IMG/VR virus record: IMGVR_UViG_2778261460_000003
Strand: one strand, 5' to 3'
From: a virus
Taxonomy: Duplodnaviria; Heunggongvirae; Uroviricota; Caudoviricetes
DNA length: 35,738 nt
Part shown: positions 1 to 27,455 of the stretch, one piece after another
How the letters are laid out: every line of letters starts with the position of its first letter
Numbering within the stretch: position 1 is the stretch's first letter
Translations under genes and position numbers: made by a program
Notes under the pieces: model-generated
The model's database searches: none
What the model saw: the letters and a program-made list of their open reading frames with translations, nothing else
Told to the model about the DNA's origin: nothing

Positions 1-141
1 TTACTGCTTACACTGTAAGAACGCCGCAAACTCCGCTCCCCAGAAGCTCATCCGTATTTCGCACAGTGAACCGTGCAGCATCCAGATGATGAGGATTGCC
101 GTCACGCAGAACGTGATGGCCGTAAGCGATTTTTGCGACAT
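1..141 (-). CDS. Hok/Gef-family type I toxin-like small membrane protein (46 aa)
   Basis: Reverse complement of 1-141 reads MSQKSLTAITFCVTAILIIWMLHGSLCEIRMSFWGAEFAAFLQCKQ: one hydrophobic helix then the SLCEIR...AAF motif typical of Hok/Gef. AAGGAG about 8 nt upstream of the ATG. Absent from the ORF track (under 60 aa). Confidence 0.55.
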   Translation of the reverse strand: MSQKSLTAITFCVTAILIIWMLHGSLCEIRMSFWGAEFAAFLQCKQ

Positions 142-331: not shown

Positions 332-592
332 TTAATTCTGAGGTAAAGGCAAGCTCATCTGATTGTTTCCCCTGTGTGAAGCTGGCAGCTCATGCCACGG
401 GATACCTTCTGAAGAGTGAACGCCGGAGGCGTGTTTCGATGTGAATTTATGGAAAGCTTCCAGTGTTGAGAAGCATACGCCGCATTCCAGGTTGTTACAC
501 TGGTAATACTTTTGCCGCACAGTGTTTGAATCATTTTCCGGACGACTGGTGCGGATGCGGGCAGATGCGCCACAAAGCGGACAACGGAACAT
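332..592 (-). CDS. ogr: Ogr/Delta-family zinc-finger late transcription activator
   Basis: N-terminus MFRCPLCG..ARIRTSR..YYQCNNLECG matches the P2 Ogr Cys4 zinc-finger pattern (MFHCPLC...ARTSR...YHQCQNVNCS). Expected position at the prophage end next to attR. Confidence 0.8.
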   Translation of the reverse strand: MFRCPLCGASARIRTSRPENDSNTVRQKYYQCNNLECGVCFSTLEAFHKFTSKHASGVHSSEGIPWHELPASHRGNNQMSLPLPQN

Positions 593-768
593 AGCGACCT
601 CCCTAACGTGGTGCTGCCGCTATTCTAAGTTGTATAAGTTGAGATTCCAACTAACAGCCTGCTTTGAACGATGTTATGATGCATATCTGTGTATTAGTGC
701 ACGGTAGAAACTGTGGTTATCAATTAAAACAAGCAGAAATTATTCTTTCATCTGGAAATGGATAAAAA

Positions 769-1593
769 ATGACTGACTTTAAATATCAATCTGATAGTTA
801 TGATAGACAATCACAAAAATTTGTTATTCCGCTCTACATACGAAATGAACTAGGCGATTATAATTATTCATCGACTGGAACGTTTATATATTACAAGCAA
901 TCACACTATGTGGTTTTTGCTGCTCATGCTCTGAGGGATAAAGATGACATCAGAAATATTTACATACTGGGTTCTGATGGTGAATTTTTTGCTTTGACTA
1001 GTATCTCTATAGGACATCGAATTTTTGAAGAAGATGATTTAGTCATTGTCGATTGCTTTAATATGATACTTGATGGGAAAAATTATTTCTCGCTTAAAGA
1101 TAATTTCAATTTTATTGGATTTGATAAGAAACATTTTGCATGGACAGGCTTCCCTAAAAACTGGTGCAAAACACAAACAATTCACAGAACAAAACGCCCT
1201 GGTTCAATAGTAAATCAAACGGTAGCTTCTAACGAAGATGGCCTGTTTTTTAAAAATGCCAAGTATTTCACTATAATATCCGAGGTTAAAACATTCAATA
1301 AAATTGAAATAACAGGAACATACAAGGTTAAGAATATAGATTTAAAATATAAAGGACAGGTAAGTAAAGGCCCTTCTCCAGAGGGAATGAGTGGTGGTGC
1401 AATGTATTTTTTCTCTAAGGGGCAAGAATTAAAAAAAGAACTGGAGTCAACATTTCTTTTGGCTGGAATTGGTTTGTCTTTTAAAAAAGATGGAACAATA
1501 GTGGGAATTAGCCGTTATCGTATGATTGAGCTATTTGAACAGTTTAATGAAGAATCACCTATAGAGTGTTCTCTTCATTTTCAACAAGAATAA
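769..1593 (+). CDS. Hypothetical cargo protein with chymotrypsin-fold serine-peptidase-like motifs (274 aa)
   Basis: Long ORF in a visibly AT-rich island. Motifs VVFAAHAL (His, about aa 53), DDLVIVD (Asp, about aa 95) and GMSGGAMY (Ser, about aa 208) resemble the TAAHC / DIAL / GDSGGP triad of S1 peptidases with similar spacing. No signal peptide evident. Followed by a hairpin terminator. Confidence 0.6.
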   Translation: MTDFKYQSDSYDRQSQKFVIPLYIRNELGDYNYSSTGTFIYYKQSHYVVFAAHALRDKDDIRNIYILGSDGEFFALTSISIGHRIFEEDDLVIVDCFNMILDGKNYFSLKDNFNFIGFDKKHFAWTGFPKNWCKTQTIHRTKRPGSIVNQTVASNEDGLFFKNAKYFTIISEVKTFNKIEITGTYKVKNIDLKYKGQVSKGPSPEGMSGGAMYFFSKGQELKKELESTFLLAGIGLSFKKDGTIVGISRYRMIELFEQFNEESPIECSLHFQQE

Positions 1594-1619
1594 TCCCTGT
1601 GCTCCAATTATACAAAATC

Positions 1620-1649
1620 ACAGCCTCTGTATGAGGCTGTTTCATTTTT
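1620..1649. terminator. Hairpin terminator between the convergent cargo gene and gene D (likely bidirectional)
   Basis: ACAGCCTC-tgtat-GAGGCTGT stem-loop followed by TTCATTTTT on the plus strand; the minus-strand side has GATTTTGT. Confidence 0.5.
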
Positions 1650-1809
1650 AACTATTAATTCTTCAATGTGCATAAGCACTATTTAAATGAGCCAAGAAGA
1701 ATATGCTACTAGCTAACAACTCACTATTTAGCATAGAGCCAATTGTTAGATTAAAATCTGGAGATAAGTGTGCCAGCTTGAGTCTGGGTCAATACGTCTA
1801 AATTACTCA

Positions 1810-2907
1810 CTATGTTTCTGCTATCCATTCCGGGATTTTTGCTTCAAGCTCAAGCTGTGTGGTAAAGCCGCTGTTATCAATGGTGTGCTCGGCTTTTGCA
1901 ATAATCCAGTCCTGATTATCAATCTCGCTTTTAAATCCTGTTACCGTGCCATGCATTTCGGGGTAGAGTTCTGCGCGTCCACGCGCCAGCGTGATGGAGA
2001 ATGATGCGGCTCCGCGTTGTAGCTGCTGCCACTTTGCCGCTGCTGCACGTCTTGCTGCCTGCTCGTTCTGATAAGTCTTGCGTAACACAAACACGTTGCC
2101 TTCCGCACCTTCCATATAATCGCCTTCCCGACTGCTGCTTTTCTCCTTTTTCGGTTTGCGGCGTTTCACGCTGACTTTTTTCTTTTTCCCGTAATTAAGA
2201 TCAAGCCAGTAAGCGCGTACCCCCGTATACGCTTCGCGGTCAGCAATGCGGAACTGATGGCGATCGCCACTGCTGCGCGTGATGGCGAACGATGGCAACG
2301 GCTGGCCCTGTGCGTTCACGCCACCGCCTGGCATGATGAATAACAGATTACCGCTTTTTACCGTGGTGATTGCGCCCAACATTTCCGCCATGCGCGTAAG
2401 GAAGGACATGTCGCTTTCTTCGGTCTGGTCGGCGTGGTCGATTTCGATATCCATCAGCATTTCGCTGATTTGCGGTTTCAGACCGTACCGATGAGCGATG
2501 GCGGATACCACACGCTCAACGGTCACATCATGCCAGGACACCTCACGTTTAACGTTAAATTCATCCCGAAAATCTGCGCTTCTGGCTGAAACAGTCAGCC
2601 TGTCCGGCGGTCCTTCGTGAGCGATTTCATCAACAATGTAAGTGCCTTTTTCTGTCAGCGGTTCTCCTTTCCAGCCAATGAGAACCGTCAGGCGCGCGCC
2701 CCGTGGCGGTAGCTGCAACTGACCATCCGCATCATCCAGCGTGATGGTGAGCTGGTCCGCCTCAAATCCCCGGTTGTCGGTCAGTGACAGGCTCATCAGG
2801 CGCTCTGCCACGCCTGACAGCGTTTTACCCTCCGCGAGAATATCAAAATCCGGCATTTTCACGGGGTCTGTGCCCTGACTGAGCAATTGCATGGTGGTGT
2901 CGGTCAT
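1810..2907 (-). CDS. D: Tail protein / late control gene D family (gpD)
   Basis: Translation has the gpD-like architecture. Start placed at MTDTTMQ (2907), preceded by a GGGAGGGAG RBS; the track's longer N-terminal extension is rejected. Confidence 0.8.
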   Translation of the reverse strand: MTDTTMQLLSQGTDPVKMPDFDILAEGKTLSGVAERLMSLSLTDNRGFEADQLTITLDDADGQLQLPPRGARLTVLIGWKGEPLTEKGTYIVDEIAHEGPPDRLTVSARSADFRDEFNVKREVSWHDVTVERVVSAIAHRYGLKPQISEMLMDIEIDHADQTEESDMSFLTRMAEMLGAITTVKSGNLLFIMPGGGVNAQGQPLPSFAITRSSGDRHQFRIADREAYTGVRAYWLDLNYGKKKKVSVKRRKPKKEKSSSREGDYMEGAEGNVFVLRKTYQNEQAARRAAAAKWQQLQRGAASFSITLARGRAELYPEMHGTVTGFKSEIDNQDWIIAKAEHTIDNSGFTTQLELEAKIPEWIAET

Positions 2908-2960
2908 CTGCTCCCTCCCTGTGTGGCATGGTCGCATGTGCGTGCGGAGGGGGTTACTGC

Positions 2961-3000
2961 TTTTTGTTGTCGCCGTGGCGGGAGAATGGCGCAGGGGTGA
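2961..3000 (+). promoter_or_regulatory. Putative Ogr-dependent late promoter upstream of FI
   Basis: Motif CTTTTTGTTGT-N12-AGA...GCAGGGGTGA; the same motif recurs upstream of gene P at 20782-20820. Resembles the TGT-N12-ACA activator site of P2 late promoters (remembered consensus). Confidence 0.35.
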
Positions 3001-3064
3001 GATTACGCGCGTGGTGGGTGATGATTGTTGCCGAATCATTTAACGGATACAAGGGGCTGAAGCT

Positions 3065-4249
3065 ATGAGTGAAACTCGTTTTCATGGTGCCCGTGTTACG
3101 GAAAATACCGACCTGGTAACAGCGATTAACGATGTTGATTCCAGTGTTATCGGTATCGTGGCAACGGCGGATGATGCGGACGCGAAGCTGTTCCCGCTGA
3201 ACAAGCCAACACTGCTGACCCGCGTCAATGACGTGCTGGGAAAATGCGGGACAACGGGGACGCTTTATCGTGCGCTTAAGGCCATCGCAGACCAGGTGAG
3301 CACAAAGGTGATCGTCGTTCGCGTGGCTGAACACAAAGAAGAAGACGGAAAGACGCAGGATCAACTGGTTATCGGTGGTTCTGAGGATGACGGCAGCTAT
3401 ACGGGGATGTATGCGCTGCTTGTTGCAGAGCAGGATGAAAGCATCGGATACCGTCCGCGTATTCTGGCCGCGCCGGAGCTGGACACGGAGGCTGTAACAA
3501 AATCCCTGTGCGTGATTGCAGGTAAACTGCGCGCGTTTGTGTATGCCTCATGTCACGGCTGTAACACGATGGCTGAGGCGATTACCTACCGCCAGAAATT
3601 CAACGAACGTGAGGTGATGCTCTTATGGCCGGACTTCATCGCCTACAACCCGAAAAGTGGCAAAAACGAAACGTTCCCCGCGCCTGCCTATGCGTGCGGC
3701 CTTCGTGCGTACATTGACCATGAGCAGGGATGGCACAAATCACTGTCCAACGTTCCGGTTAAAAATGTGCTGGGGATGTCGAGGCATGTGTTCTGGTCGT
3801 TGCAGGCCGAAGACAGCGATGCCAACAGCCTCAACAACAAAGAAATCACGACCATTATTCGTCGCAACGGGTTCCGCTTCTGGGGCAACCGCACACCGGA
3901 AACGAACGCCTACATCTTTGAGGTGTATACCCGAACCGCACAGGTGCTGGCTGATTCAATTGCGGAAGCGCAGTTTGAAACCATCGACAGTCCACTGACG
4001 CCTGCGAACGTGAAGGATGTTATCAGCGCCATCAGGGCAAAACTGGATTCGCTGGTTACTGCCGGGAAACTGATTGGCGCGGAGTGCTGGTATGACGTGG
4101 TGGATAACGGCACCACGGATTTACGTCAGGGGCGTGTGCGTATTCGCTACAAATATACGCCCGTTCCCCCGCTGGAAGACATGGAGCTTTACCAGACGTT
4201 TACTGATGAATTCTTTGGTCCCGCATTTGCGGTGCTGGGAGGTGCCTGA
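3065..4249 (+). CDS. FI: Contractile tail sheath protein (gpFI)
   Basis: 394 aa; followed by the tube gene with TGATG stop/start overlap; P2 FI-like size and position. Confidence 0.9.
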   Translation: MSETRFHGARVTENTDLVTAINDVDSSVIGIVATADDADAKLFPLNKPTLLTRVNDVLGKCGTTGTLYRALKAIADQVSTKVIVVRVAEHKEEDGKTQDQLVIGGSEDDGSYTGMYALLVAEQDESIGYRPRILAAPELDTEAVTKSLCVIAGKLRAFVYASCHGCNTMAEAITYRQKFNEREVMLLWPDFIAYNPKSGKNETFPAPAYACGLRAYIDHEQGWHKSLSNVPVKNVLGMSRHVFWSLQAEDSDANSLNNKEITTIIRRNGFRFWGNRTPETNAYIFEVYTRTAQVLADSIAEAQFETIDSPLTPANVKDVISAIRAKLDSLVTAGKLIGAECWYDVVDNGTTDLRQGRVRIRYKYTPVPPLEDMELYQTFTDEFFGPAFAVLGGA

Positions 4250-4761
4250 TGGCTGTACCAAAACATCTTCGCTTTTTTACGTTGTTTGTGGATGGTGAAA
4301 ACGAAGTGGGTAAAGTGACATCCGTCACGCCGCCCAAACTGACGCGCAAAACCGACAGTTATCGTGGTGGTGGCATGATGGGGGCGGTAAGTATTGATCT
4401 CGGTCTGGACGACTCCGCGCTTGATGCGAGCTTTGTCATGGGTGGAGCTGTTCGTGCACTGTTCCTTAAGTATGGCGGCACGATTGACGGCACGCTGCTG
4501 CGTTTTGCGGGTGAATATTACACCGATGCAGAAAGCGATCTGTATGAAATCGAGATGCGTGGGCGTGTGACGGAAATTGATATGGGGGAGGCCAAACAGG
4601 GCGAGGCCACATCACACACATACGCTGTCAAAAACACCTACTACAAGCTGAGTGTTAACGATCGCCCGCTGTGGGAAATCGACCTGTTGAACCACATCTA
4701 CCGGAAGGACGGCAAGGACATTGTGCCTGACCGCATTCGCTCCGCGCTTGGGCTTGGCTGA
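4249..4761 (+). CDS. FII: Tail tube protein (gpFII)
   Basis: 170 aa; start overlaps the FI stop; canonical FI-FII pair. Confidence 0.9.
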   Translation: MAVPKHLRFFTLFVDGENEVGKVTSVTPPKLTRKTDSYRGGGMMGAVSIDLGLDDSALDASFVMGGAVRALFLKYGGTIDGTLLRFAGEYYTDAESDLYEIEMRGRVTEIDMGEAKQGEATSHTYAVKNTYYKLSVNDRPLWEIDLLNHIYRKDGKDIVPDRIRSALGLG

Positions 4762-4816
4762 TAAGTAATATGCAGGCGACGCAGTGCGTCGCCTCTGACT
4801 GAAAAGGAGACAACTG

Positions 4817-5191
4817 ATGAAAGACATCGATACTGAAACCCGGAATAACACCGTAGCGGATGATGTGACGGCAGGTGAGGATATGGCTGTCGAACGTGGT
4901 GTAAAACTTTCCCGGCCAATTGAGCGTGGTGCCGAAAAAATCACATATGTGGAAATCACCGGGGCTATTGAGCAGGCGGGATCCCTGCGTGGTCTGTCGC
5001 TGTCTGATGTGCTGAATCTGAAAGCGGATACCATGTTCACGCTGTTGCCTCGCGTGACCTCGCCACGACTGGATGAAGTGATGATTAAAAAAATGTCGTC
5101 ACGCGATTTTATTCAGTTGTGCGCTGTGGCTGTAAATTTTATGAGCGAGCCAGACTCTGGCGCGAAGAGCGTGCAGGAGACGGCAGCGTAA
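4817..5191 (+). CDS. E: Tail assembly chaperone gpE (zero-frame product)
   Basis: Small ORF between tube and tape-measure genes; its 3' part overlaps a -1 frame ORF that runs into the start of T. Confidence 0.7.
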   Translation: MKDIDTETRNNTVADDVTAGEDMAVERGVKLSRPIERGAEKITYVEITGAIEQAGSLRGLSLSDVLNLKADTMFTLLPRVTSPRLDEVMIKKMSSRDFIQLCAVAVNFMSEPDSGAKSVQETAA

Positions 5192-5355
5192 TCACCCTGG
5201 TGTGCTTTGAGCACATCGAAGAGCTGGTGGCGGATATTGCCGCCATTTTTAACTGGTCGCCCGCCGAAATCTTCATGATGACGCCCGGCGAAGTGGTTAG
5301 CTGGCGTGAGCGGGCGGCACTTCGCAGCGGGAATGCAGATAATGAAGACTCTTGA
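4817..5355 (+). CDS. gpE+E' fusion via programmed -1 frameshift (putative slip at the A7 run 5087-5093)
   Basis: The -1 frame is open from 5089 to a stop at 5355 and overlaps the T start, as E' does in P2-like phages. The only homopolymer slip candidate in the permitted window is ATT AAA AAA ATG. Confidence 0.45.
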
Positions 5356-8149
5356 CATCCGGGTCGCTTTCAGCGCCGTTGACAGGCTGACCCGGCCTGC
5401 CGAAAACGCCCGCCGCCTGATGGGGCAGTTTGGTGACTCCATCCAGCGAACGCAGGGGGCGATCAAAAATCTCGAGCGTCAGGCGCGTTCATTTGAGCGC
5501 GCCCGCGACGCTGTCAGTAAAGCGGATGCGGGTATCGTGAAAGCACGACGCCAGCTTAACGCCCTTAATCAGTTACAACGCACGGGTACAGTGCTCAGCG
5601 AAAAACAACAAAAGCTGATGCAGCAGTTAAGCACCCGGCTTGAACGCCTGAATGAATCGCGCACACGGGAAATTCAGAAAATGCGGGAGCTTGGCGGAGA
5701 GCTGAAACGCCACGGCATTTCCCTGACAGGCAGCGATAACACCATCCAGCAGGCCATCAGACGCACCGAACAGTACAACAACCAGCTTGAACGCGAACGG
5801 CAGGCGCTTGCGCGTGTAACGCGGGCGCGTGAGCGGTATTCGCGCGCGCAGGAAACAGCGGGAAAACTGAAAACAGGTGGTGCGCTGGCAATTGGTGCGG
5901 CAGCGGCGGGCGGCTATGCTGCCGGGCGTTTTTTGCAGCCTGCGATCGGGTTCGGGAAAGAGATGTCCCGCGTTCAGGCACTGACGCGAATCGACAAAAA
6001 CAGCCCGCAGTTTAAGGCGCTGCGTGAGCAGGCGTTAAAACTTGGCTCTGAAACGCAGTTCACCGCAGGCGATGCCGCCAGTGGGCAGGCATTTCTTGCA
6101 ATGGCTGGCTTCACACCACAGGCCATTCAGGCTGCGCTCCCTGGCGTACTGAGCATGGCAACGGCTGGCGGTATGGACCTCGGTGAGACGGCGGATATTG
6201 GCTCAAATATTCTGACGCAGTTCGGTCTTTCTGCTGACCAGATGGACCGGGTCGGCGACACACTCACCGCAGCGTTTACCCGTACCAACACTGACCTTCG
6301 CGCACTGGGTGAAACCATGAAATATGCAGGTCCGGTGGCGGGTAAGCTGGGAATATCGCTGGAGCAGGCCGCAGCGATGGCGGGCGTGCTGGCGAATATG
6401 GGTATCAGGGGGAGTGATGCTGGTACGGCAATGCGTGCCAGCCTGGCTCGTCTGGCATCACCGCCAAAGGCGGCAGCAGAGGCGCTGAAAGAGCTTGGCG
6501 TGTCTGTCTCGGATGCCGGGGGCAAAATGCGCCCGATGGAGGATGTGCTGGCTGACCTTTATAAAGCTACCCGCAAATACGGGGAAGTTGACCGGGTATC
6601 GTTCTTTAAGGACATTGCCGGAGAAGAGGCTTTCACATCATTTATGGCCCTCGTTGATGCGGCAGGTGACGGCTCCTTACCCAAACTGAGAAAAGAACTT
6701 GAAGGCGCGCGCGGTGAGGCTGAACGCACGGCAAAGGTTATGGCCAACAACCTTGACGGCGATCTGAAATCACTCAGCAGTGCATGGGAAGGGTTGCGCA
6801 TCCGCATTGCAGATCTGATTGACGGTCCGCTGCGTTCTGTCACGCAGTGGCTCACGCGTGTGGTATCAAAGGTGACGGCGCTGGCGCAGGCCCATCCCGC
6901 ACTGACGCGCCAGCTACTGATTGCAGGCGGTGCACTGCTGGCAATGACTGCAACGGTTGGCTCGTTGTCGCTGGCTATTGGTGTGCTTGCTGGTCCGCTG
7001 GCAAAACTGCGTCTTGTTTTTTCCCTCCTGACCGGATCAATGAATGCTGTCAGGGTTCTGCCAGCACTATGGGGAATGGTGACGGGTTCCGTTTCGTTAC
7101 TGGGGGGCGCTATCGGGGCGTTGTTCAGTCCGGTCGGTCTTATCGTGGCTGCGCTTGCCGGAGCTGCCGTTCTCATCTGGAAATACTGGGATCCCATCAG
7201 GGCATTTTTTGCCGGGGTGTTCAGCGGGATTATGGAAAGGCTGACCCCGTTGCGCGAAACCTTTGAACGGTTTGGTCCTGTTTTTGACGCAATCGGAAGC
7301 GGGATCAGCCAGGTGTTTAACTGGTTTAAATCGCTGTTGTCACCGATGGAGTCCAGCAAGGAAACGCTGGATAAATGTACCAGTGCTGGCGAGGTATTCG
7401 GTAACGTTCTTGGCGGTGCGTTACAACTTGTTCTGACACCTGCAAAAATGCTACTGGATACGCTGGCGTGGATACTTGAAAAACTTGGCGTCCTTCCGGA
7501 TGAAGCGGAAAGGGCGCGCAAGAAAATCGAAGACGCACAGCGTGCGGCCATTCTTCAGGACAAGGTTGCCTTACTTCAGGGGGACCTGGCGAAAATCAAT
7601 CCGCCGAAGCCTGTGGAAAATGGCAATGGCACCGGAGGTGATAAACCCAAAGACAACAAACCGCTCACAGACAGCAATACCGGGACGCTACGCAGACTCA
7701 GCAAAATTGCTGATAACACAGGTAAGCTGGTTGATGAGACGAAAAAACGCATTGGCCCCGGCGATATTGTCTTTAAGAACTTGCCCCGCGCACTTGCTGT
7801 TCGTGGGGAGTGGCAGGAGCGGAAGATTGCACAGGTCAGAAAGCCTGCCCCCGCAATTAATATCACCCCCGTGGTCCCGGCTCCGCTGCCTCCGGCGCTG
7901 GTCCCTGTTGTTGCGGCCAGCTCCCACCCGGTGGCGGAGGCCATACGATCTCCAGTGGCATCAGTTCCTGTAACTTCCCGTAACCGGGAGCCTGTTGCCT
8001 CCGGATTTGGTGGTGAAATTCATGTTCATCTGCATAACGTTGTTACGCAGAATCCCCGCGAACTGGCGAAACTGGTCGGTGAAATGGTCAGGGCAGAAAT
8101 GGAACGGCGCGCCCGTGCCGGGCGTGGCAGTTTTTACGATAAAGATTGA
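5306..8149 (+). CDS. T: Tail tape measure protein (gpT)
   Basis: 947-aa ORF with a coiled-coil-like N-terminal region (runs of R/Q/E/L), a central Gly/Ala-rich hydrophobic segment and a Pro/Ala-rich C-terminus; located after E/E'. Start could be 5306, 5333 or 5342. Confidence 0.85.
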   Translation: MSGRHFAAGMQIMKTLDIRVAFSAVDRLTRPAENARRLMGQFGDSIQRTQGAIKNLERQARSFERARDAVSKADAGIVKARRQLNALNQLQRTGTVLSEKQQKLMQQLSTRLERLNESRTREIQKMRELGGELKRHGISLTGSDNTIQQAIRRTEQYNNQLERERQALARVTRARERYSRAQETAGKLKTGGALAIGAAAAGGYAAGRFLQPAIGFGKEMSRVQALTRIDKNSPQFKALREQALKLGSETQFTAGDAASGQAFLAMAGFTPQAIQAALPGVLSMATAGGMDLGETADIGSNILTQFGLSADQMDRVGDTLTAAFTRTNTDLRALGETMKYAGPVAGKLGISLEQAAAMAGVLANMGIRGSDAGTAMRASLARLASPPKAAAEALKELGVSVSDAGGKMRPMEDVLADLYKATRKYGEVDRVSFFKDIAGEEAFTSFMALVDAAGDGSLPKLRKELEGARGEAERTAKVMANNLDGDLKSLSSAWEGLRIRIADLIDGPLRSVTQWLTRVVSKVTALAQAHPALTRQLLIAGGALLAMTATVGSLSLAIGVLAGPLAKLRLVFSLLTGSMNAVRVLPALWGMVTGSVSLLGGAIGALFSPVGLIVAALAGAAVLIWKYWDPIRAFFAGVFSGIMERLTPLRETFERFGPVFDAIGSGISQVFNWFKSLLSPMESSKETLDKCTSAGEVFGNVLGGALQLVLTPAKMLLDTLAWILEKLGVLPDEAERARKKIEDAQRAAILQDKVALLQGDLAKINPPKPVENGNGTGGDKPKDNKPLTDSNTGTLRRLSKIADNTGKLVDETKKRIGPGDIVFKNLPRALAVRGEWQERKIAQVRKPAPAINITPVVPAPLPPALVPVVAASSHPVAEAIRSPVASVPVTSRNREPVASGFGGEIHVHLHNVVTQNPRELAKLVGEMVRAEMERRARAGRGSFYDKD

Positions 8150-8155
8150 GGAGTC

Positions 8156-8650
8156 ATGGCCATGATGATGATCTACGGCATGTTTGTTTTTGAGCTGCGC
8201 ACATTGCCGCATCAGCAGTTACAGCAAAACAAAAGCTGGCGGCATGTGAAAAATGAACGCGTTAACCGTTCAGCAAGCTGGCAGTATATCGGCGCAGGTG
8301 ATGATCGCATCGTGCTTTCCGGCGTGCTTTATCCTGAAATTACAGGTGGCGAAGTGTCGCTTTCGTTGCTGACCACGCAGGCATATACAGGACGCCCCTG
8401 GCCTCTGATTGATGGTGTCGGGCAGATTTACGGCATGTATGTCCTGACCGGAACGAATACGACCCGCTCCGAGTTTGATCGCTACGGTAAGGCGAAAAAG
8501 ATAGAATTTTCACTGACTCTTGAACGCTGTGATGAGGATTTGCGGGAGCGCCTGCAATCCTCATCGTTCAGTGATATGCTGTCCGGCTTCAAAGATAAGG
8601 TCACATCATCCCTTAACAGCGCGGCCAGCTCCGTTAAAGGGCTGTTTTGA
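8156..8650 (+). CDS. U: Tail protein gpU
   Basis: 164-aa ORF immediately after T; size and position match P2 U. Confidence 0.8.
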   Translation: MAMMMIYGMFVFELRTLPHQQLQQNKSWRHVKNERVNRSASWQYIGAGDDRIVLSGVLYPEITGGEVSLSLLTTQAYTGRPWPLIDGVGQIYGMYVLTGTNTTRSEFDRYGKAKKIEFSLTLERCDEDLRERLQSSSFSDMLSGFKDKVTSSLNSAASSVKGLF

Positions 8651-24171: not shown

Positions 24172-26376
24172 TTACGTGTCGAGAGAAATTTGTGTGCGCA
24201 GTTGAATAGGATTCAGAATTGTATATCGCTGGCGAATAACATTATATAAATCAAAGTCTTTTACCCTTACGCTTATTACCATCGCATATTGCATATCAGG
24301 GGCTGAAACTCCCTTAACATGGCGCGAAGAATCTCGGGCATGATACCGTATATCAAAAACTGGATCGCTTAATAATGTATCAGCACTGAACTTTTTGCTT
24401 CTGTGCAAACAAGTTTCCCACTTATGACCTTCACTCCTACACTCCCTTTCAGTCTTATACTGGCTTTTTTGACCAAAGAAATCATCTGTATCGGTATCGT
24501 CAAGGCCGAATCTTGGGCGGAAAGTTACCTGCATACCGGCCCTTGTATAGTTTACTGAATGTTCAGGATCTACTGGGGTTTGAATGCATAAAGTAGCGGT
24601 AAGCTCAAATGCTTCGTCAAAGGGAACATCAGGGAATGGGATCGGTGCCCTTAAATATTTATTTTTTGCTAATGAACCATAGTAAATTACTGTAGCAGTA
24701 TCATTTGGACAATCGATTAAAACGTTAGGATCCTCACTAAACCGTCCCCAACCGATATGTTCACGCGAATATTTTCTTGATGTTTCAGCATGATGAACAA
24801 GCAACGCTTTCAATGCAATGGTGTTCAATGGAGTTCCTGATAGAGCCGCAACTCCAGCGGCCGTTCTCAATGCTAATGGAGAGGCATAACTGGTTCCTTG
24901 AACTCCAACTATAGAACCAAGCAGAGGGTTGTAAGTGTAAAAAGGCTCGTCGTCGCTTCCACCAAAAATAACACCATCAGGTTTAACGAATCCGGGGCTT
25001 CTGCCTGGCCCAATACAGCTATATGGTGCCCGCCCCCATTTTTCACCGCTACGATCAGCAGCACCAATCGCTAGCGCGTTTACCATATCGGAAGGAGGTT
25101 GTATTCTCGCTGCATCACCGTCCTCATTGCCATCATTCCCAACAGCAACAGTAAGTAATATCCCATGCTTAGCACAGATTTGGTCTAAAACAGCAGTCCA
25201 TACATGAACCTCATCATCACCAATTGGAAGATGAGGACCAATACTTAGATTAGCGAACTTATAGTCACCACTATCAAGAACGGACTGTATTTTCTTAAGG
25301 ACATCAAATAAATCCCAATTGCCATTGTCACCTGATGTCGGTGAAAGAACTCTATAATGATCTACATTCATAAACGGTCTTTTAAAAGAAGGTGCATTTT
25401 CCTCGACACGTCCGAATAAGAAAGTGGATGTCACTTCATTACCGTGCTGCAATAATAATCCGCTTGTTTCTTTGGTGTCTGGATACACGTATTCCGTAAC
25501 CCAATTACTCAAGTCAGCTGTCCCCAAGCCACCATCAAAAATGGCAATACGTTCGGATTCAAGAACAGCTTTAGAATTAGGGAGCTCCGGTGTAACTATA
25601 TTAGATAACTTTCTGACAATGTTCGGCTGAGTACACCTGAGAGACGGCATCGGCCGCACAACGCGGATTAATGAAAAATCGAGTGTTTTTTTCATATCTT
25701 CAGGTCGCGCGTGTGCAACGATGAAAGTCAGCCCACCAACTTGGATTCTACTTTTGTAATCAACAGAGACATCATATTGTGCCGCATAGCTAATATAGGC
25801 TTTAACGATATCATCGTCTTCAACCCCAGCATGAAGAACCACTTCAAATTTTATCAAATCACTTTTCGCATGCTCAAAATTGCGTGCTCTCTCTTTTCCT
25901 TCAAAAAAGCTAACACTTTCAATTTCGATCAAATCCTTTTGTACGCCCTTCGGAGCTGTAGGGGAATTTAAAATTTCCTTAAATCTTATAACGGCATCAT
26001 CATCACCGCTAACAAACAGTTGCGCCGTTACTAAGTCCTTATTCTGATCGCACTGACGTGCCGCTTTCCGTGGGCGAATGATTACCTGACGGCTACCGAC
26101 ATCCCGTAAACCTGTCGCTCTAAGCAATCCTTCCGGAAAGTAGCTTTTACCCAAAAACGCTGGGTGTAAAGTTAAATTGAATACACTCTCCCCCCTTGGC
26201 TTAGCCGCATCATCCAAACTGCGAAAGCGTGAGAGTAAAGTATCAATCTCTGGGTTTAAATGCTCCCTTACTTCTTCAAGAGTATAGGGATAGCGCTTAC
26301 CATCCCTTCCTTTAGGCAAAGGTTCCTTTTTTGTCAGAACATGACCGTTACCTAAAAGTAAGTTCCTTTCCATCAT
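24172..26376 (-). CDS. Subtilisin-like serine peptidase (S8 family) with N- and C-terminal extensions, 734 aa
   Basis: Motifs IAIFDGGLG (Asp), LLQHGNEV (His), VAVGNDGNEDG (oxyanion Asn), GTSYASPLALRTAAG (Ser); AT-rich; 4-nt overlap with the upstream ATPase gene. Confidence 0.8.
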   Translation of the reverse strand: MMERNLLLGNGHVLTKKEPLPKGRDGKRYPYTLEEVREHLNPEIDTLLSRFRSLDDAAKPRGESVFNLTLHPAFLGKSYFPEGLLRATGLRDVGSRQVIIRPRKAARQCDQNKDLVTAQLFVSGDDDAVIRFKEILNSPTAPKGVQKDLIEIESVSFFEGKERARNFEHAKSDLIKFEVVLHAGVEDDDIVKAYISYAAQYDVSVDYKSRIQVGGLTFIVAHARPEDMKKTLDFSLIRVVRPMPSLRCTQPNIVRKLSNIVTPELPNSKAVLESERIAIFDGGLGTADLSNWVTEYVYPDTKETSGLLLQHGNEVTSTFLFGRVEENAPSFKRPFMNVDHYRVLSPTSGDNGNWDLFDVLKKIQSVLDSGDYKFANLSIGPHLPIGDDEVHVWTAVLDQICAKHGILLTVAVGNDGNEDGDAARIQPPSDMVNALAIGAADRSGEKWGRAPYSCIGPGRSPGFVKPDGVIFGGSDDEPFYTYNPLLGSIVGVQGTSYASPLALRTAAGVAALSGTPLNTIALKALLVHHAETSRKYSREHIGWGRFSEDPNVLIDCPNDTATVIYYGSLAKNKYLRAPIPFPDVPFDEAFELTATLCIQTPVDPEHSVNYTRAGMQVTFRPRFGLDDTDTDDFFGQKSQYKTERECRSEGHKWETCLHRSKKFSADTLLSDPVFDIRYHARDSSRHVKGVSAPDMQYAMVISVRVKDFDLYNVIRQRYTILNPIQLRTQISLDT

Positions 26377-27455
26377 TTAATCCCCCACTTTTGTAATTTA
26401 TTCGCGATTGTTGGATGTGAAACACCAACTAATTCAGCTATCTTCCTATTTGAAAAACCGTCAAAATGATATTTAATTATATTGAGATCATTATCGCTAA
26501 ACTCATCCAATGAAACCCTCTCCGTAATTACGGCTTCTATTAATGAGCTTTCAAATGGAATATTTCTAAGTACCTCATTCTTTTTGGAGAAATTCAAAAT
26601 ACGGTTAATGATGGCAAAGGACATGCCATCTAATAATGGTGCAAGTTTTTTAGATAGTTCAGGTTCAATATTATGATTGACTAAATATCTATCTATCAGT
26701 TCTACTGATGGCATATTAAATTTAAGGATGTGCTCAAATCGACGCCAAACAGCCGGATCTAAGATATCAGGGTGATTAGTCGCAGCAACAAGAAGCGAGG
26801 TCGCTGGCCACTCATCTATGGTCTGTAGGAGTACAGTAACTAAACGTTTTAATTCTCCAACGTCCCTGTCATCATCACGTCTTTTTGCAACAGCATCAAA
26901 TTCATCAAGCAAAAGGACACATGGTTTCTCTTTGGCATAATCCATAACGGATTTAATATTATTACCTGTTTTTCCCAAAAGAGAACTCATTACAGATGAG
27001 AGATCCAATGTTAAAAGAGGTAAATTTAACTTTGCAGCAAGCCAATGTGCGGACATTGTTTTGCCTACGCCTGGCGGGCCAGAAAGTAAAACCGTCTTCA
27101 CAGGTTCAAGACCAGCTTTGAACAAAGAAACCGCATTCTCTCTTTCGTTAACAATTGACTCCAGCTTCTTTGAGATATCCGTATTCCATACAGGTTCTTC
27201 AACAATTGCGTTGACAGATGTTTCCTGCAAAAGGTTTCGTCTGGAGTCTCCATCCACAGGCATAGGAGCCTTACTAGATGCCCCACGTAATACTGTTCCC
27301 TCAGCAACTAACGAAGCCAGCTTAGAAGCTAAAGCCTCATCATTTTTACGGATGTTGTTAATCATCTTTCTGCATAGGAGTGTAAATGCATTTGCGTTGC
27401 CTTTGATGCCTTGCTCGATGAGTTTGAAAAGTTCATCCTCCCTCACGTTTACCAT
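26373..27455 (-). CDS. AAA+ ATPase with C-terminal HTH-like region, 360 aa
   Basis: Walker A GPPGVGKT, Walker B VLLLDEFD; C-terminal NRKIAELVGVSHPTIANKLQKWG resembles an HTH; AT-rich. Confidence 0.8.
   Translation of the reverse strand: MVNVREDELFKLIEQGIKGNANAFTLLCRKMINNIRKNDEALASKLASLVAEGTVLRGASSKAPMPVDGDSRRNLLQETSVNAIVEEPVWNTDISKKLESIVNERENAVSLFKAGLEPVKTVLLSGPPGVGKTMSAHWLAAKLNLPLLTLDLSSVMSSLLGKTGNNIKSVMDYAKEKPCVLLLDEFDAVAKRRDDDRDVGELKRLVTVLLQTIDEWPATSLLVAATNHPDILDPAVWRRFEHILKFNMPSVELIDRYLVNHNIEPELSKKLAPLLDGMSFAIINRILNFSKKNEVLRNIPFESSLIEAVITERVSLDEFSDNDLNIIKYHFDGFSNRKIAELVGVSHPTIANKLQKWGIK

Follow-up and report, generated by a model that had tools for sequence, protein, structure and literature searches.

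What is a lone, AT-rich gene doing between ogr and D, two conserved genes of a P2-family prophage, and what might its product do for the element that carries it? The locus that raises this question lies in the IMG/VR record IMGVR_UViG_2778261460_000003, a stretch of viral DNA of 35,738 nucleotides (nt) that is referred to here, as a whole, as the window; the prophage is of the P88-like type (Xuanwuvirus, Peduoviridae, P2 family) found in Escherichia coli. The gene is, with near certainty, horizontally acquired cargo in a variable site at the ogr-D junction. Its product of 274 amino acids (aa) is best read as a member of a previously undescribed family of stand-alone, single-domain proteases of the PA clan, and we put the gene forward, with modest confidence, as a candidate one-gene anti-phage defence.

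The extent of the insertion is set by comparison with phage P88, which is free of cargo at this site. In a local alignment, P88 homology ends at position 631 and restarts at 1797, leaving an insert of 1,165 bp (632-1796), and the same query interval measures 1,466-1,468 bp in the empty allele versus 2,631 bp here. The G+C fraction (GC) of the insert, 0.33 against 0.51-0.58 around it, is the minimum of the whole window; every 200-nt step from 601 to 1800 has a GC of 0.30-0.36, against 0.47-0.59 on both sides. The gap between ogr and D holds one long open reading frame (ORF) only, which starts with ATG, and because it lies on the plus strand and D on the minus strand, the cargo gene is convergent with D. 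A hairpin downstream of its stop codon folds with a free energy of -14.2 kcal/mol (z-score -3.6; none of 200 shuffles folds as well), and since it scores as a terminator on both strands it could end both the protease gene and the converging D transcript. A sequence-only reading of this stretch had described an AT-rich single-gene cargo between ogr and D, convergent with D and closed by a hairpin terminator of its own, and composition, the lone ORF, the strands, the hairpin and absence from nearly all related prophages bear it out in each of these respects; the bounds that it gave, 593-1810, do enclose an insertion, although they slightly overstate its extent.

The distribution of the gene adds to this picture. 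The genes that surround it are 95-99% identical to those of prophages in some 1,450-1,650 of 5,426 complete E. coli genomes, and equally close to those of phages P88, PhiR44_2, P884B11 and 500465-2, and yet the cargo DNA occurs in only two of the same genomes, TUM1880 and EcPF40, whose prophages occupy two different places in the chromosome (one beside ihfA, the other beside prpB). Relatives of the protease are encoded in none of 50,697 phage records. The protein is identical to WP_053903352.1 and 99% identical to WP_000129162.1, and all of its database copies are named 'hypothetical protein'. We regard the gene as cargo because of its low GC, the empty site in P88, its rarity, the two different chromosomal sites and its absence from phage records. 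The same distribution bears on the idea of a morphogenetic protease that matures the head or tail of the phage itself, which might be suggested by tail genes adjoining the gene here and by the location of a Proteus homologue within a tail module. The gene is transcribed against the late operon, and it is missing from more than 99% of the 95-99% identical prophages and from P88, PhiR44_2 and other phages; as these sister phages are viable without it, a morphogenetic role is effectively refuted and was rejected.

The junction itself is a regular single-gene hotspot in the P88-like lineage. Prophages were sampled from high to low ranks of the E. coli matches; both flanks were matched in 41, of which 22 were empty at the junction and 19 occupied, by at least 10 types of cargo. 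Besides the protease (one prophage), these comprised YecA/SEC-C proteins (three), DUF3800 proteins (two), a PIN_12 protein, a DUF2971 protein and a ParA-like AAA_31 ATPase (one each), hypothetical genes of several sizes (eight) and insertion sequence (IS) elements (two). The DUF2971 cargo matches the PADLOC candidate PDC-S31 (5e-27), a TIR protein that appears as cargo in further matches corresponds to PADLOC bSEFIR (1.4e-44), and a 340-aa cargo of E. coli prophages has a weak match to HEPN; most of the other cargos have no match in Pfam or PADLOC. The sequence-only reading had placed the insertion at a locus not usually listed as a hotspot; in this lineage, however, it is not an odd one-off site. 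Neither ogr nor D is named by Rousset et al. 2022 (PMC9122126) or in a 2026 survey of P2 and P4 (10.64898/2026.02.27.708500), and all that the iLund4u preprint has on the matter is a third hotspot, placed 'between a tail protein and CI'. Like the old/tin (gpA-portal) and Z/fun hotspots of P2 (PMC9122126), which are AT-rich and variable and hold mostly defence cargo between conserved core genes, it is a variable site within a conserved backbone, although its position differs from both. The alternative cargos without matches are mostly single genes of 220-470 aa (221, 229, 384 and 465 aa), and a pair of 134 and 186 aa was also seen.

What kind of protein does this cargo encode? The AlphaFold2 (AF2) model of the 274-aa protein has a predicted local distance difference test (pLDDT) score of 90.4 and a predicted template modelling (pTM) score of 0.88, and shows a double beta-barrel chymotrypsin fold with a C-terminal helix. 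The top Foldseek matches in the Protein Data Bank (PDB) are all S1 proteases (probability 1.00), the structurally nearest being HtrA/DegS (S1C) and V8/Spl/exfoliative-toxin (S1B) enzymes; a structure search of BFVD returned only generic RNA-virus 3C/S-like proteases, uninformative beyond the fold. Conservation was examined in an alignment of the close family (39 homologues) and in a wide alignment of 130 sequences reaching down to about 15% identity. The motifs VVFAAHAL, DDLVIVD and GMSGGAMY, in which the sequence-only reading had recognised a protease-like protein lacking a signal peptide, do contain H53, D90 and S208, invariant in the close family and placed in the canonical His, Asp, Ser order within the modelled fold, and the segment G206-M-S208-G-G210 is likewise invariant in all 39 sequences. 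By fold and catalytic residues, as far as model and alignment tell, the protein is a member of the PA clan. Two results that would have told against the sequence-only reading, a model without the chymotrypsin fold and presence of the gene in every related prophage, were thus not obtained.

Sequence profiles reach the same class by a longer route. A profile of the close family finds only chance matches in the PDB, and the profile of the wide alignment reaches S1 proteases there with E-values of 1e-4 to 1e-3; it aligns FAAH with the TAAHC (His57) motif, and D-I-x-I with the DIA(I/V)L (Asp102) motif, of factor Xa, SMIPP-S, SplE and exfoliative toxin B. Among the distant relatives, 50 of 130 match Pfam Trypsin_2 and 16 of 130 match Trypsin; the 274-aa protein itself has no Pfam match even at E<=1, below the threshold for both Trypsin_2 (PF13365) and Trypsin (PF00089), and its link to these families is thus transitive only. 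NCBIfam gave no match, and a PHROG match (E 0.004, residues 83-125, function unassigned) was disregarded as weak and partial. The likeness to PA-clan S1 peptidases accordingly consists in the chymotrypsin fold, the His-Asp-Ser order and the TAAH-like, D-I-x-I-like and G-x-S-G-G motifs, against which stand an identity of only 10-17% to any solved structure and traits of the family's own, namely Met where Asp or Asn would precede the nucleophile Ser, and a long Asp-Ser spacing (118 residues) that takes in an invariant, family-specific K-N-Y-F loop, located between the barrels. The N-terminal 35 residues are highly conserved and the catalytic core is fixed, and variation is found in segments 55-66, 72-80 and 148-160 and in the C-terminal tail. 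Hydropathy reveals neither a signal peptide nor a membrane segment (first 30 residues, mean -0.97; 19-residue maximum, 1.16), and with so hydrophilic an N-terminus and so low a maximum the protein should be cytoplasmic. In this it differs from HtrA/DegP-type S1C enzymes, which have an export signal or anchor and PDZ domains; the 274-aa protein is hydrophilic at its N-terminus and single-domain, with no PDZ match and no pro-region.

Fold and motifs could in principle be retained by an inactive pseudo-protease scaffold or by a decaying remnant, and the non-catalytic SMIPP-S and haptoglobin are indeed among the structural matches, just as some copies of the gene are broken. We consider this highly improbable, given that the His, Asp and Ser, together with the glycines of the oxyanion hole, show little or no variation in 130 sequences reaching down to about 15% identity, and that the ratio of nonsynonymous to synonymous substitution rates (Ka/Ks) between enterobacterial and Shewanella copies, 0.09-0.23, points to a gene under purifying selection. 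The protein is very probably an active serine protease, as predicted from its model and its conserved residues. The broken copies comprise one in Terasakiispira (locus L026, 9947-10818), split into 182 and 87 aa, and truncated members of 195-227 aa in E. coli assemblies (P0247/P0248); they indicate occasional decay of the gene. The features of the locus are collected in Table 1.

Table 1. Coordinates of features in the window, with the evidence for each (positions count from the first nucleotide of the window).
Feature	Position	Strand	Evidence and remarks
ogr (late-gene activator, Ogr/Delta zinc finger)	332..592	-	Pfam Ogr_Delta 5.1e-14; RefSeq annotation in TUM1880; left conserved hotspot flank
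ogr-proximal intergenic DNA common with cargo-free P88	593..631		Local alignment; ends in TCTAAGTT (624-631)
Direct repeat, imperfect (7/8)	624-631 and 1797-1804		TCTAAGTT and TCTAAATT, exactly at both cargo boundaries
AT-rich cargo segment	632..1796		Outer ~30-40 bp on each side common with prophages that carry other cargo
Sigma-70-like promoter match, weak	651..680	+	CTAACA-18-TATGAT, extended TG; 9/12; 89 nt upstream of start codon
Predicted protease coding sequence, PA-clan (chymotrypsin-fold), 274 aa	769..1593	+	
Predicted catalytic His53 codon (FAAHAL)	925..927	+	Invariant in 39 homologues; >=90% in 130 sequences; aligns to TAAHC His of factor Xa, SplE and SMIPP-S
Predicted catalytic Asp90 codon (D-L-V-I-V)	1036..1038	+	Invariant in 39 homologues; >=90% in 130 sequences; aligns to DIA(I/V)L Asp of S1 proteases
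Predicted nucleophile Ser208 codon, in G206-M-S-G-G210 oxyanion-hole motif	1390..1392	+	S208 and G209 invariant in 130 sequences; G206 >=90%
Intrinsic-terminator hairpin	1620..1640	bidirectional	8 bp, 5 GC pairs, then T-run; 27 nt past stop codon
Gene D (tail/late control protein D)	1810..2907	-	Pfam Phage_GPD 1.5e-17; RefSeq coding sequence in TUM1880; right conserved hotspot flank
IetAS	24172-27455	-	ORFs of 360 and 734 aa; PADLOC IetA 3.6e-89, IetS 6.6e-41

Relatives of the protease are few and scattered. A word-indexed search returned 98 relatives of 270-283 aa from Proteus, Pluralibacter, Citrobacter, Vibrio, Photobacterium, Shewanella, Halomonas, Marinomonas, Pseudomonas, Acidovorax, Cupriavidus, Herminiimonas and Aliarcobacter. 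When 1.84 billion cluster representatives were searched exhaustively with a profile, no more than 183 clusters reached E<=1e-3, almost all of them single-domain and of 250-300 aa, and a pattern scan of 185,579 species-representative genomes gave 13 loci. Homologues have identities of 31-79%, and the family is small, patchy and mobile. No recognisable domain fusion was found among its longer members, a few of which are extended at the C-terminus by about 100 aa that could be assigned to no domain.

The places in which these relatives reside show that the family recurs in defence hotspots and islands. Homologues lie in the gpA-portal interval, the classical old/tin antiviral hotspot (Rousset 2022, PMC9122126), of three other P2-like prophages: in Pluralibacter gergoviae (66% identity) the gene is the only cargo that a P2/186-like prophage has between its gpA and portal genes, and the same position is taken in an Aeromonas metagenome-assembled genome (MAG) and in an IMG/VR contig. 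In Shewanella denitrificans the homologue belongs to a lambdoid prophage and adjoins an N6-methylase/specificity-subunit pair and the CI repressor gene, with Abi_alpha near; in Herminiimonas it stands between a TIR protein and hsdRMS, a type I restriction-modification (R-M) system; in Pseudomonas syringae an OLD-like TOPRIM ATPase and a NOV_C protein are encoded beside it in the same island, and in Halomonas the surrounding island is rich in IS elements and holds RelA/SpoT-like and KwaB genes. When 126 neighbours from 11 loci were pooled, they included matches to ThsB (1.5e-129), LmuA/LmuB, a type I restriction endonuclease and several PADLOC candidate (PDC) families. Other settings are of a different kind. 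The Proteus mirabilis copy (71% identity) is a moron that an unrelated siphovirus prophage carries inside its tail module, that of Citrobacter freundii lies within the transfer operon of an integrative and conjugative element (ICE), and the Microbulbifer and Bacterioplanes copies are found in islands of unknown genes.

Two rival explanations turn on these locations. The first is that the protease acts in counter-defence or in competition between elements, destroying host immune proteins or the proteins of competitors such as P4-like satellites and so helping its carrier to establish. The carriage of the family by several kinds of mobile element would suit this, as would the Citrobacter copy, whose ICE also has Antirestrict and ArdC genes, and hotspots are known to hold defence and counter-defence cargo alike (bioRxiv 10.1101/2024.10.15.618418). 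Convergence with the late operon and a terminator of its own, on the other hand, typify morons that are expressed in the lysogen, not early anti-defence genes; anti-defence genes are present in only 28 of 1,511 P2-like prophages, in whose hotspots defence genes dominate (10.64898/2026.02.27.708500); and the copies of P. syringae and Herminiimonas belong to defence islands of the chromosome, apart from any element. Counter-defence is in our view unlikely. A distinctly unlikely explanation is that the gene encodes an accessory protease of lysogenic conversion or of a housekeeping type, serving for instance in host protein turnover under stress and unrelated to phage conflict. Many hotspot genes have no assigned function and two of the contexts above lack a defence signal, which would leave room for such a role; it agrees poorly with a gene so patchy and rare (13 loci in 185,579 species representatives, two of 5,426 E. 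coli genomes), so low in GC and so mobile, and placed repeatedly in validated antiviral hotspots and next to R-M, Thoeris-like TIR, Lamassu and OLD-like genes.

A further explanation concerns partners. Proteases can be toxins, as the example of IetS shows (PMC13069673), and about 350 bp of the insert is AT-rich and non-coding, so the gene might be the toxin of an addiction module of the toxin-antitoxin type that stabilises the prophage and whose antitoxin, a small protein or an RNA, would be encoded in 632-768 or 1594-1796. An obligate antitoxin should travel with its gene. We searched for a partner gene, small ORF or non-coding element that does so and found none conserved; across the loci compared, which number more than 15, no neighbour recurs, and their nucleotide similarity does not extend past the coding sequence, save for 37 nt upstream in Proteus. 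The missing partner counts against a toxin module, which we hold to be very unlikely. Two loci of the Halomonas type (L015, 10941-11531; L016, 2814-3404) have a 196-aa gene without Pfam match following the protease homologue; it is absent elsewhere and could be either a lineage-specific neighbour or a local partner.

The defence reading is thus better backed by context than when it was first proposed, because homologues sit in the gpA-portal hotspot and in defence islands, and it can be set beside the protease systems already known from bacterial immunity. Lit, encoded by the e14 prophage, is a zinc metalloprotease with an HExxH motif that causes abortive infection by cleaving EF-Tu when the Gol peptide of T4 appears. 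It is the only well-understood precedent for a lone protease that both senses and executes, and resembles the 274-aa protein in being the product of a single prophage-borne gene without partner; the two are unlike in fold and catalytic class, the 274-aa protein has no match to Pfam U49, and the analogy is a functional one only. A second comparison is available within the window itself. IetAS, reportedly described by Gao et al. in 2020, is a defence system composed of an AAA ATPase and an S8 subtilisin-like protease. Low GC (0.36-0.45) also marks a second island, which separates the terminase/portal block from a gpA-like replication gene. By its PADLOC matches this island is a complete Iet system that occupies the classical old/tin hotspot, and together with the insert protease it gives the prophage two protease-containing cargos. 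The two have in common that each is a protease in a P2-family hotspot, that of Iet being a subtilisin that depends on an obligatory ATPase partner, unlike the 274-aa protein. The trypsin-like modules of Avs2, Hachiman, Lamassu and DRT systems consist of a protease fused to a sensor, which activates a separate and always adjacent pro-nuclease (PMC12799240; 10.1101/2025.09.03.673762). The trypsin fold and serine protease class are shared with these trypsin-metallo-beta-lactamase (MBL) arrangements, and yet the 274-aa protein is not fused to another domain, and neither an MBL gene nor any conserved neighbour adjoins its gene. Protease-effector modules more widely, caspase-nuclease and Pepco/EACC1 among them, are marked by an effector gene next door, a sensor fused to the protease, or both, and the family shows neither feature.

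Several observations weigh against a role in defence. None of the families of PADLOC-DB v2.0.0 (2023) matches the protein at E<=1; no sensor domain is recognisable and no partner accompanies the gene, in contrast to the characterised trypsin-like proteases of bacterial immunity; the candidate promoter of its own is a weak consensus match only; the Proteus copy keeps company with tail genes, the place of the Citrobacter copy in a conjugation operon fits other roles, and the Microbulbifer and Bacterioplanes contexts are uninformative on function. In the insert region, sigma-70-like matches are not enriched over shuffles (9 found versus 5.2 +/- 2.6), and expression of the gene from its own promoter in the lysogen is an assumption on our part. 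A literature search on the accession, on stand-alone trypsin-like single-gene defence and on an ogr-D hotspot found no description of the family.

How might such a defence operate? As the protein lacks both a sensor domain and a partner, a Lit-like scheme is the simplest, and for it we infer expression in the lysogen, proteolytic activity, an anti-phage role, a trigger and a target. The protease would be made in the lysogen and serve the prophage against other phages, being kept harmless by a narrow specificity or by latching itself. An infecting phage would supply a substrate or cofactor, upon which a phage protein or an essential host protein would be cleaved and the infection blocked, possibly by death of the cell. 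Abortive infection as the specific mechanism, which the sequence-only reading had suggested as a fit, seems to us possible, though doubtful. As to silencing and triggering, the variable loops and the conserved N-terminal segment fit, by conjecture, a tuning of specificity and a latch. In its boldest form, which we offer tentatively and think rather unlikely as a whole, the idea is that a protease domain of about 275 residues may alone constitute a complete antiviral immune system, in which recognition of the invader would amount to the binding of a substrate or cofactor by the variable loops flanking the active site (55-66, 72-80 and 148-160), and the N-terminal 35 residues would serve as the latch.

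The borders of the insert offer some indication of how cargo may be exchanged at this junction. The inner flanks (632-669 and 1767-1796) are common to prophages that carry unrelated cargo (TIR, YecA and a 229-aa unknown) and are missing from the empty allele; since they are shared in this way, they would allow cassettes to be exchanged by recombination within them, which suggests that these short flanks act as handles for cassette swapping. The empty P88 site has a single copy of the TCTAAGTT/TCTAAATT repeat, which could represent microhomology for the gain or loss of a cassette, or chance. A minus-strand promoter-like site for ogr (650-622) spans the left boundary of the insert. At the prophage end near ogr lies a Hok/Gef-family toxin gene (1-141, minus strand), and from it to about position 330 the DNA is about 80-83% identical to Shiga toxin (Stx)-converting phages. 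On the other side, gene D (1810-3039, minus strand) is often annotated in RefSeq as a shortened 'VgrG/Pvc8 family' coding sequence (~266 aa) plus a tiny overlapping pseudogene; in TUM1880 the gene encodes a full 365-aa D protein, and the shortened versions look like annotation inconsistency rather than biology. The gene order from 1810 to 8650 is unlike that of P2, the D-ogr block being divergent from FI-FII-E-T-U (FI starts at 3065, plus strand) rather than placed after U.

It is becoming apparent that proteases have a central part in bacterial immunity, and single-gene candidates in hotspots are common. About a quarter of complete E. coli genomes contain P88-like prophages, and the cargo of their ogr-D junctions provides a compact list of further defence candidates. 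The trypsin-like examples characterised so far are subordinate modules, fused to a sensor and paired with the effector that they activate. Should the proposed role prove true, the 274-aa protein would be a minimal, protease-only sensor-effector in bacteria, a serine-protease counterpart of Lit, and its relatives a new defence family spread over Gamma-, Beta- and Epsilonproteobacteria on prophages, ICEs and islands. It would also offer a very small and tractable system for finding a viral trigger and a cleaved target. An always-solitary family that resides in validated antiviral hotspots would, in this way, reveal whether both the detection and the arrest of a phage are within reach of a bare protease domain.

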